A stretch of DNA of 50,823 bases, taken from the IMG/VR virus record IMGVR_UViG_2721755725_000006, one strand, 5' to 3'. Within the stretch, counting starts at the first letter, position 1. Each line of letters begins with the position of its first letter. The stretch is from a virus (Duplodnaviria > Heunggongvirae > Uroviricota > Caudoviricetes). Below, piece by piece: positions 6,001 to 9,000 of this stretch. Made by a program: the position numbers.

Positions 6001-9000
6001 GCAGGAGGTGAATCAATGACCTGGCCTGAAGCATTCACAACGGTAGGAATTGCGATGGCGGTGGCGCTGGTGGAGTATTCGATTTGCCGCTGGGGATAAA
6101 AACGGTTTGCGGGAAAAGGATAGTTAAGTAGAATTGCAGCGGGTGCTTGAGGCTATCTGCCTCGGGCATGAACACCAACGGCAGATAGAGAAAAGCCCCA
6201 GTTAACATTACGCGTCCTGCAAGACGCTTAACATTAATCTGAGGCTCAATCCATGCTGAACACATGTAGGTTAGCCTCTTACGTGCCGAAAGGCAAGGAG
6301 AAGCAGGCTATGAAGCAGCAAAAGGCGATGTTAATCGCCCTGATCGTCATCTGTTTAACCGTCATAGTGACGGCACTGGTAACGAGGAAAGACCTCTGCG
6401 AGGTGCGAATCCGAACCGGTCAGACGGAGGTCGCTGTCTTCGTAGACTACGAATCTGAGAAGTAAGAGACCAGGCGGGGGAGTAATCTCCCGCCACCTCT
6501 GATGTGTCAGGCATCCTCAACGCACCCGCGCTTTACCATACTGAAAATGCTGTTTGAATGTTCATCTCTGAAAGAGGACTATGAATGAAAAAGGTATTGA
6601 TTGCAGCACTTATTTCCGGTGTGTCTTTTGGCGCTTTTGCACAGCAGGGTGGTTTCCAGGGGCCAGAAGCAGAGCGTTCAACAGTAGCGCAGGCAAAAGA
6701 ACTGAAGGATGATGCATGGGTTATCCTTGAAGGGAGCATCGTTAAAAAAGTGGGTGATGAACGTTATGAGTTTCGTGACAATAGCGGGACAATTGTCACG
6801 GATATTGATGACAGCGTATGGGCCGGGCAGAATGTTTCTCCGAAAGACAAAGTAAGAATTGAGGGTGAAATTGATAAAGACCTGAGCAGTGTTGAAGTTG
6901 ATGTAAAGGCACTGAAATTATTAAAGTAACCGCCCCTGCTTGTTAAGCCCGTCTTACTGACGGGTTTTCTGTTTGTACATTCCGGCGTATTGCCTTACAA
7001 TTCGCGCAGTCAGCCTGAACAACTGACACCTGCTGTCACCGGAGAATCCGATGACACAACACATAAAATCCCACAATTCTGAAGCCGACCCGGAAATTAA
7101 GCAGGGGAGGCGTTTTCGTGCGCCTCAGTATGGCTGGTTTCACTATCTGTTCTGTACGATCGATGAGGCAGATATGCTTCAAGAGGCGTATCTGCGTCGC
7201 GGTGTCCGTGTGGAGCGGAGTCTGAACGCTGATCGTCTGACCTGGACCGTTTCTGTATATCTTCCTGTTCGTGCACATCTGCCACGGACACATGCCTGCT
7301 ACCGTCAGCGCGTCTGGAGGTAATGTGCGGGTATTACTTCGACCTGTTCTGGTTCCGGAACTCGGGCTGGTGGTCCTTAAGCCCGGTCGTGAATCATTGC
7401 CAGTTTTTCATCGCGGCAGGGTGCTGGTGGAGCCGGAACCGAAAAACATGCGGGCGCTGCCATCTGGAGCGGTTCCTGCTGTTCGCCAGCCGCTGGCGGA
7501 AGATAAATCACTGCTGCCATTTTTCAGCGATGAGCGGGTGATTCGTGCAGCTGGCGGCGCTGGTGCACTGTCTGACTGGTTATTACGTCACGTGAAATCC
7601 TGCCAGTGGCCACACGGCGATTATCATCACAGCGAAACCGTTATTCACAGTTACGGTGCTGGCGCAATGGTGTTGTGCTGGCACTGCGACAACCAGCTGC
7701 GCGACCAGACCTCCGAATCACTTGAGCAACTTACTCAACAAAATCTGACAGCCTGGATGATTGACGTCATACGCCATGTAATGAATGGCACGCAGGAGCG
7801 GGAATTATCGCTGGCTGAATTATCCTGGTGGGCAGTCTGCAATCAGGTGGTGGACGCATTACCTGAGGCAGTATCGCGTCGCTCTCTGGGATTACCGGCG
7901 GAAAAAATCCGCTCCGTATACCGTGAAAGCGACATCATACCGGGAGAACAGACCGCCACCAGCATACTGAAGCAGCGCACAAAAAATATTGCGCTACCGC
8001 CTCACACCCACCAGCAACAGAACCCACCACAGGAAAAGACGGTGGTCAGCATTGCCGTTGATCCGGAGTCTCCGGAATCCTTCATGAAACGACCTAAACG
8101 TCGCCGCTGGGTAAATGAGAAATACACACGCTGGGTAAAGACACAGCCGTGTGCGTGTTGTGGTAAGCCAGCGGACGATCCTCATCATCTGATTGGTCAT
8201 GGTCAGGGCGGAATGGGAACAAAATCCCACGATATTTTCACGCTACCGCTGTGTCGGGAGCATCACAACGAGCTTCATGCGGATCCGCTGGCGTTCGAAG
8301 AAAAGCATGGTTCCCAGGTTGATTTAATTTTTCGTTTTCTTGATCACGCCTTTGCAACCGGCGTGCTCGGGTAAAAGAGGTTACTGATGCGTATAGAGTT
8401 TGTTTTGCCTTACCCGCCGACGGTGAACACCTACTGGCGACGTCGTGGCAGCACATATTTTGTATCAAAAGCCGGTGAGCGTTATCGCCGGGATGTGGCA
8501 CTTATTGTTCGCCAGCAGCGGCTGAAATTAAACCTGTCCGGAAGGCTGGCGATAAAGATTATTGCAGAGCCACCGGATAAGCGCCGTCGTGACCTGGACA
8601 ATATCCTGAAAGCACCACTGGATGCGCTGACGCATGCCGGACTTCTCATAGACGACGAGCAGTTTGATGAAATCAATATTGTGCGCGGCCAGCTCGTTTC
8701 TGGTGGGCGGCTGGGCGTGAAGATTTACAAAATTGAAAGTGAGTGAGCATAAATATGATATACCCGGAAATTACAGGCAAAAGCGGTGAGCATTTACGCC
8801 TGAAAACGCTGGAAAGTGTCTGGATCCAGGGGAAACTGCGTATGTGGGGGCGTTGGTCGTATATTGGCGACGGTAAGACGGGAAATATGTTCAACCAATT
8901 ACTGACCTCTAAAAAGCTGACAAAAACGGCAATTAACGAGGCGCTCCGGAGGATGAAAAAAGCGGGTCTGGACAAACCTGAACTTGAGGCTTTTTTGCGG

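Follow-up and report, generated by a model that had tools for sequence, protein, structure and literature searches.

Described relatives of the locus reported here include the hok/sok (parB) system of plasmid R1, which is plasmid-borne and has a proven role in post-segregational killing, and the hokW/mokW/sokW system of Shiga toxin (Stx) phages, which is already known, with an annotation in phage 933W dating from 1999 and a functional characterisation from 2021 (PMC8621323). We analysed a copy of this type I toxin-antitoxin (TA) system in a 50,823-nucleotide stretch of DNA from a virus of the Caudoviricetes (IMG/VR record IMGVR_UViG_2721755725_000006). This whole stretch is called the window, and all positions given below are counted in it. 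An original prediction, made from the sequence alone, had placed a Hok/Gef type I toxin locus at 6020-6465, inside what it called the early region of a prophage.

The functional work on hokW was carried out on Sp5, a prophage of the Sakai strain. HokW induced with arabinose arrests growth; the same fragment does no harm when it also carries sokW with its own promoter, and mutation of the sokW -10 box restores toxicity (PMC8621323). Provided in trans, sokW partly relieves the toxicity of HokW, and its antitoxin effect partly needs RNase III and Hfq (PMC8621323). Both hokW and sokW RNAs were detected by northern blotting in Sp5 lysogens. After treatment with mitomycin C, the sokW RNA is lost; the appearance of HokW in the inner membrane depends on RecA and precedes that of the endolysin by about 1 h. 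Deletion of hokW-sokW delays growth arrest and halves phage release (PMC8621323). Why the sokW RNA disappears after RecA-dependent induction was left unexplained (PMC8621323). Toxicity on overexpression and an antisense transcript on northern blots, both of which the original prediction had proposed to look for, had thus already been observed for a 933W-type locus.

A near-identical copy of the 933W and Sp5 locus

The window carries what is almost certainly a complete and functional copy of the hokW/mokW/sokW type I TA system, located in the nin-like region of a lambdoid prophage of an Escherichia coli O111-type strain. A megablast search against phage genomes found the region to be 97% identical in Stx phages, including 933W (AF125520). 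Between 6100 and 6500, 397 of 401 bases are identical to 933W (positions in the locus were converted to window positions by adding 4500), and the hok/mok coding sequence is the same. The four substitutions lie at 6121, in the promoter spacer; at 6138, between the -10 box and the +1 position; at 6218, in the loop of the Sok/target hairpin; and at 6473, at the base of the 3' stem. None of the differences falls in a promoter hexamer or in the paired positions of the translational activator (tac) with the fold-back inhibitory element (fbi), of the upstream complementary box (ucb) with the Shine-Dalgarno (SD) sequence, or of the downstream complementary box (dcb).

The window copy also shares with 933W and Sp5 the sok promoter, the Sok RNA, tac, fbi, the 3' stem-loop, a downstream BOF/YgiW-like gene and an upstream open reading frame (ORF) of 27 codons, and it occupies the same place in the phage map, in the nin-like region, with the DUF968 gene, RusA and Q located downstream. 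The gene located 5' of the small ORF differs, being a DUF551 gene in the window and L0139 in 933W, and homology starts only at about 6005. The host prophages differ as well: that of the window is lambda-like and long-tailed, from an O111-type strain, whereas 933W is a Stx2 phage of the Sepvirinae.

Little of this is new, as the toxin is already in RefSeq, where the hokW gene is called 'Hok/Gef family protein', and the copy differs only trivially from the reference, although it is found in a different, non-933W prophage backbone. The value of the analysis lies mostly in annotation. The folded leader and the antisense RNA had been described in the original prediction as unannotated, which is true of the RefSeq/PGAP prophage records, from which the sokW RNA and the mokW frame are missing, and incorrect for GenBank AF125520, whose annotated features in the matching region include mokW, hokW and a 'SokW antisense RNA' and which carries a note that reads 'prophage maintenance'. 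The map of elements given below can be transferred to approximately 1,000 complete E. coli genomes with the same arrangement.

The hokW and mokW coding sequences

The hokW toxin gene (6310-6465, plus strand) was identified by direct reading and in the ORF list; it runs from the ATG at 6310 to the stop codon at 6463-6465, is preceded by the SD sequence AGGAG at 6296-6300 (plus strand), and encodes a protein of 51 amino acids, MKQQKAMLIALIVICLTVIVTALVTRKDLCEVRIRTGQTEVAVFVDYESEK. This protein matches the Pfam profile PF01848 (HOK_GEF) over its whole length (1-42 of 42) with an E-value of 4.3e-23 and 81 bits (cut-off 22). Its identity is 92% with HokD/RelF of K-12, 80% with HokC/Gef and 45% with Hok of plasmid R1, and C15, C30 and the TRK..LCE motif are invariant in an alignment with these three proteins. 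HokW therefore has the features of a Hok/Gef toxin, namely a size of about 50 amino acids, an N-terminal transmembrane helix and a conserved periplasmic part with two cysteines. Assignment of the 51-codon ORF to the HokD/RelF-like members of the family, as originally proposed, is borne out by the profile match and by the identity to HokD.

An in-frame ATG at 6253 opens the mokW frame (6253-6465, plus strand; 70 codons), which is in frame with hokW, ends at the common stop codon and coincides exactly with the mokW annotated in 933W, so the suggestion that a Mok-like frame might start there was correct. Its own SD sequence, GAGG (6241-6244, plus strand), is located 8 nt 5' of the ATG and inside the Sok-complementary region; it is paired with ucb in the closed fold and with dcb in the Rfam consensus. 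An upstream mok frame with its own SD sequence, overlapping hok, is a feature of the family, and by homology to R1 the translation of hokW would be coupled to that of mokW.

Transcripts and promoters

The putative hokW promoter spans 6107-6134 (plus strand), with a -35 box TTGCGG at 6107-6112, a 16-nt spacer and a -10 box TAGAAT at 6129-6134. The sequence reading and the alignment, in which the +1 position of R1 (GGCGCTT) falls at 6142, suggest that transcription would start at about 6141/6142; similarity to other hok loci begins at about 6093, which agrees with this placement of the promoter. A folded leader upstream of hok had been predicted over 290 bp, and the folding holds, with a length that homology of the transcript start reduces to about 170 nt. 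The segment 6141-6315 (plus strand) matches the Rfam covariance model RF01794 with 113.5 bits (gathering score 59; E = 3.8e-25), and this match, together with the significant fold of the full-length RNA (z = -7.7) and its 5'-3' closing helix, supports the folded hok mRNA leader.

RF01794 is named 'sok antitoxin (CssrC)', but its match lies on the hok-sense strand and corresponds to the leader of the hok mRNA, up to the hok AUG. The same is seen in K-12, where the model matches the hokC strand, opposite the annotated sokC (6141-6315, plus strand, in the window; 502-654, minus strand, in locus L007). We therefore rejected the match as an antisense gene, the model being a description of the hok mRNA leader. 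Since RF01794 reports the hok-sense strand, automated pipelines would assign the antitoxin to the wrong strand.

The sokW antisense RNA maps from the 933W annotation to 6191-6261 on the minus strand (71 nt, starting with the G at 6261). It folds into a single-stranded 5' tail of 13-14 nt, a long hairpin and a UUUU tail (-30.0 kcal/mol, z = -5.0), and its target hairpin and tail-binding site on the plus strand span 6200-6261. The sokW promoter is located at 6268-6296 (minus strand), with a -35 box TTGCCT at 6296-6291, a 17-nt spacer and a -10 box TAACCT at 6273-6268; the positions of these hexamers are conserved in hokC, hokD-like and R1-type loci. Reagents of the Sp5 study correspond directly to these coordinates, with the sokW probe YO-592 being identical to 6232-6261 and primer YO-421 mutating exactly the bases assigned here as the sok -10 box (PMC8621323). 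The predicted Sok-like RNA is therefore the one annotated as sokW in 933W and detected in Sp5, where mutations in the -10 box at 6268-6273 (minus strand) abolish it. Sequence and folding thus reveal a cis-encoded antisense RNA over the mok initiation region, with its own promoter, 5' tail and terminator hairpin, whose transcript has been seen in Sp5.

Regulatory RNA elements and alternative folds

The regulatory elements were placed using an alignment of five loci (the window, an O178 prophage hokD-like locus, a plasmid hokD-like locus, an intact hokC and an R1-type hok) and the element definitions of Le Rhun et al. 2022 (PMC9841398). All the regulatory elements of the R1 paradigm could be placed in the window. 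Alignment with characterised loci had been recommended in the original prediction for locating the sok promoter and the tac/fbi elements. The domain of the full-length hokW mRNA covers 6141-6529 (plus strand), starting at the 5' end and finishing with the fbi pairing, and aligns with the hokC, hokD-like and R1-type loci.

At the 5' end of the mRNA, tac (GGGUGCUUGAGG; 6141-6152, plus strand) has three alternative partners: 6515-6527 in the minimum free energy (MFE) fold of the full-length RNA, ucb in the Rfam consensus, and 6160-6169 in a local hairpin of the nascent or truncated RNA. The upper 5' stem-loop follows (6153-6188, plus strand), in which CTATCTGCC at 6153-6161 pairs with GGCAGATAG at 6180-6188; it is kept in all five aligned hok loci and forms the top of a longer, imperfect repeat of 20 nt (6142-6161 with 6180-6199). 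An inverted repeat had been noticed at about 6153-6194. The repeat is real, and its span, as given by the arms, is slightly shorter. In 600 nt, chance would produce about 0.1 perfect 9-mer inverted repeats, and such a repeat is not significant alone.

The mok anti-SD element, ucb (AAGCCCCAG; 6193-6201, plus strand), pairs through 6194-6201 with 6239-6246, including the mok SD sequence GAGG, in the full-length MFE fold, and alternatively with tac in the Rfam consensus and in the fold of a 60-nt nascent RNA. Further downstream, dcb (GCCUC; 6274-6278, plus strand) is invariant in the five loci and pairs with GAGGC at 6241-6245 in the RF01794 consensus.

Two elements are located 3' of the hokW stop codon. 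The first is the stem-loop that ends the processed hok mRNA (6473-6494, plus strand), a GC-rich stem of 9 bp, GGCGGGGGA/TCTCCCGCC, present in all folds. It aligns with the 3' stem of R1, in which the mutations G345A and C358A abolish the truncated mRNA (PMC9841398), and it provides the stable 3' stem-loop typical of the family, a structure that shields the active mRNA from 3' exonucleases. The second is fbi (CCUCAACGCACCC; 6515-6527, plus strand), which forms 12 bp with tac. Both elements are essential and both fall outside the interval 6020-6465, which is therefore wrong as the bounds of the locus; the locus extends to about 6529.

Folding of the full-length RNA (6141-6531) gave an MFE of -162.6 kcal/mol (z = -7.68) and a structure whose 5' and 3' ends pair with each other. 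This is the closed form, in which the 12-bp tac/fbi helix is formed and the mok SD sequence is paired with ucb. Across the five hok loci, the tac/fbi helix is retained in 96.7% of cells, with one compensatory change from U-A to C-G in R1, compared with 32-53% of cells that pair in controls with the partner slid by 1-3 columns. Covariation in the hok family has already been published. The open form, with tac paired to ucb and the mok SD sequence to dcb as in RF01794, is less favourable than the closed one by 13 kcal/mol when the RNA is full-length and by only 2.5 kcal/mol when it is truncated to 6497. The first 35 nt form a metastable tac hairpin of -18.8 kcal/mol. Computationally, the RNA therefore displays the long-range tac/fbi pairing and the closed, open and metastable leader conformations of the family. 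As the three conformations of R1 are all present in the folds, the window sequence encodes all three, and the order of the folding steps and the 3' processing probably follow R1, given the homology between the two.

Comparison with other hok loci

The R1 locus has the same architecture and the same order of elements as the window, with a sok promoter that likewise overlaps the dcb/hok-SD region, and the R1-type locus matches RF01794 with 87 bits. It differs in about 17 extra nt in the first stem-loop of the leader and in a Sok-target hairpin that is shorter than that of the window. The hokC/mokC/sokC (gef) locus shares approximately 75% DNA identity with the window over the whole mRNA, has mok and hok in frame with a common stop codon, and has the same Rfam match on the hok strand. 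It is, however, chromosomal rather than phage-borne, and its Sok-target hairpin is 18 nt shorter.

For hokD (relF), located in the cryptic Qin prophage of K-12, homology to the window extends from the hok SD sequence through the 3' stem-loop and fbi. K-12 hokD lacks the leader (promoter, tac, ucb, mok start and sok gene), which has been replaced by relBE, whereas the window has the intact form, of the ancestral type. The Qin order hokD, rem, ydfU (DUF968), ydfT (Q) resembles the layout of the window.

Among complete E. coli genomes, a 601-bp query running from the end of the DUF551 gene through hok into the start of the BOF gene was covered to at least 80% in 1081 out of 5426. Hok-type loci in general are present in 5425 of the 5426 genomes, at a median of 3 places per genome and up to 10-11.

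Proposed mechanism and alternative explanations

By analogy with R1 and Sp5, the locus may work as follows. The weak constitutive promoter at 6107-6134 would produce a stable hok mRNA, in which the 5' tac would be kept in a local hairpin while the RNA is nascent. In the complete mRNA, tac (6141-6152) would pair with fbi (6515-6527) to give the closed fold, where ucb would hide the mok ribosome-binding site and Sok could not bind. Slow 3' trimming to the stem-loop at 6473-6494 would remove fbi and allow the tac/ucb and mok SD/dcb pairings, making the mRNA both translatable and targetable. The unstable 71-nt Sok RNA would then bind the mok start region through its 5' tail and block the translation of mok and hence of the coupled hok, and the duplex would be cut by RNase III. 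Should the supply of Sok stop, Mok and Hok would be made, and the 51-aa Hok would enter the inner membrane and depolarise or kill the cell. In a prophage setting, the locus would be expected to behave as the near-identical Sp5 copy, which is on after RecA-dependent induction and approximately doubles phage release.

Several observations weigh against a complete and functional locus operating in this way. The evidence on expression, RNA ends and toxicity all comes from close relatives rather than from the strain of the window. Both promoters are weak matches to the consensus: a strict consensus promoter/terminator scan of 5900-6700 returned no sites, which is not evidence of absence, and it missed both promoters because the sok -10 box TAACCT and the hok -35 box TTGCGG (3/6) fall below its threshold of 4/6 hexamer matches. 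The covariation shuffle control for tac/fbi is weak, being based on five sequences only, with 94 of 500 shuffles reaching the observed value. The unconstrained MFE of the truncated RNA still pairs the mok SD sequence with ucb, so that the open form is near-optimal rather than optimal. No intrinsic terminator was detected after fbi before 6945-6967, and the segment 6495-6600 has no significant structure (z = +0.98), whereas in the four other aligned loci, including R1, a GC-rich hairpin followed by a T-run occurs shortly after fbi; the window and 933W, identical there, lack it. Without a terminator after fbi, the 3' end of the full-length mRNA and its processing route are uncertain. Moreover, since many genomes hold several hok/sok copies, Sok from other copies could blunt the effect of a single one.

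One alternative is that the locus is a decayed, non-functional relic, as several chromosomal hok loci of K-12 are, having been inactivated by insertion sequences (IS) or, in the case of hokD, stripped of leader and sok gene. In hokD, only the stretch from the hok SD sequence to fbi is held in common with the window and the leader has given way to relBE, while hokC is disrupted by IS186 immediately downstream; some phage records even name the gene 'RelF inactive antibacterial toxin protein'. In the window, by contrast, every regulatory element is intact, as are the two reading frames, and the locus is 99% identical to one proven to be toxic and regulated by Sok, with four differences that spare the key helices and the promoter hexamers. 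We regard decay as very improbable.

The remaining alternatives concern the role of a functional locus rather than its integrity. Stabilisation of the prophage, by post-segregational killing of cells that lose it, would be the main role according to the classical function of R1 hok/sok (PMC8621323), and the GenBank note of 933W points the same way. That such killing, rather than assistance to lysis, is what the locus mainly does nevertheless appears rather unlikely: deletion of hokW-sokW from Sp5 had no growth phenotype in uninduced cells, and the locus led to earlier arrest and about twofold phage release after induction (PMC8621323). Most genomes also contain several similar hok/sok copies (median of 2-3 places, up to 10-11), whose Sok acting in trans could cancel the killing that follows prophage loss. 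Abortive infection would make use of the same decay logic, since a superinfecting lytic phage that shuts off host transcription would deplete Sok and the infected cell would die. In support of it, R1 hok/sok on a high-copy plasmid lowered the plating efficiency and plaque size of T4 (cited in PMC8621323), but that effect was modest and observed only at high copy number, and the only direct data on hokW point to a role that favours the phage (PMC8621323). A defensive role thus seems improbable, more so than prophage stabilisation.

Position in the prophage and transcriptional read-through

The first 12.6 kb of the window are 100% identical to a prophage of E. coli O111:H- 11128, and the genes from approximately 949 to 10575 are all on the plus strand. 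The order begins with a YdaS/Cro-like gene, YdaT, a 356-aa gene with no Pfam match and a DnaC/IstB-like ATPase; the position of the 356-aa gene suggests a role in replication. These are followed by DUF1627, a DNA-binding protein, two hypothetical proteins, DUF4014 (by annotation), DUF551, the 27-codon ORF and hok, and then by the BOF/YgiW-like gene (6585-6929), a 90-aa ORF, DUF968, RusA, Q (DUF1133/Phage_antitermQ), a small unnamed ORF and an AraC-type regulator. The locus therefore lies between the replication genes and the Q antiterminator and is co-oriented with the rightward early operon, which agrees with its original placement in the prophage early region.

A pR-like promoter was found at 897-924, and no terminator-like sites were detected on the plus strand between it and hokW. 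The sok promoter faces this rightward early operon head-on. Expression of the module in a lysogen would depend on its own two promoters. Once the prophage is induced, read-through from the early operon might remove Sok, by occlusion of or collision at the weak sok promoter, by titration with sense RNA that carries the Sok target, or by both, and thereby free the stored, processed hok mRNA. We offer this tentatively, as a possibility less likely to be right than wrong. If true, early-operon read-through would be the trigger that removes Sok on induction, and this is the sole forward-looking point of the analysis.

The first terminator-like site, at 6945-6967, is located directly after the BOF gene, and the hokW promoter may thus also transcribe the BOF/YgiW-like gene up to this site. 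In the fold of a hypothetical co-transcript covering 6141-6975, the hok domain still closes through tac/fbi.

At the left end of the window, the segment 351-387 is a perfect hairpin palindrome of 37 nt, TACCCATGGGTATTTAAAAAGTAAATACCCATGGGTA. Both strands have T-runs, in the manner of a bidirectional terminator, and the palindrome is located just beyond a 138-aa gene on the minus strand (430-846; no Pfam match) that lies opposite the Cro-like gene.

The 27-codon ORF upstream of hokW

The segment 6020-6099, included in the original interval, was rejected as part of the hok leader, because hok homology starts only at about 6093 and the segment belongs to a separate conserved ORF that is also present in phages without a nearby annotated hok. 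This small hydrophobic ORF (6016-6099, plus strand; 27 codons) encodes MTWPEAFTTVGIAMAVALVEYSICRWG. Its ATG overlaps the TGA stop codon of the DUF551 gene (ATGA), and an SD sequence, GGAGGTGA, is located upstream. With tblastn, the ORF was found at full length in 88 phage records, at 59-96% identity. Its place in BP-4795 and PhiR12_1 is behind an Ea22-like gene, close to xis/int; in these two phages it is itself unannotated, and no hok is annotated within 900 bp. In 933W, the small ORF keeps its 27 codons despite 7 amino-acid changes. It may encode a conserved, translationally coupled small membrane protein.

Other features of the window

Three tRNA genes (Ile, Arg and Arg, following the annotation of NC_013364) are located at 10607-10855 (plus strand), 3' of the AraC-type regulator gene, and are directly followed by the IS66-family element ISEc47 (approximately 11064-14300). 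ISEc47 occupies what we take to be the site where Stx phages carry stx; no stx gene is annotated in the closely matching O111:H- 11128 prophage. A match to the small RNA STnc100 was found at 14168-14340.

In the lysis region, the IS3-family element IS1203 occupies 17515-18819 and contains an ALIL frameshift pseudoknot at 17847-17963. Strains such as E2863 have this element, which the otherwise colinear prophage of O111:H- 11128 lacks.

The window is colinear with the O111:H- 11128 prophage only as far as 43594. For the right end (43594-50823), the best match, at 100%, comprises tail-fibre genes, a transposase and the type III effector genes espN and nleL. On the chromosome of strain E2863, this match sits at a different position from the hok region, and the cargo end of the prophage thus appears to be mosaic or recombined among strains.

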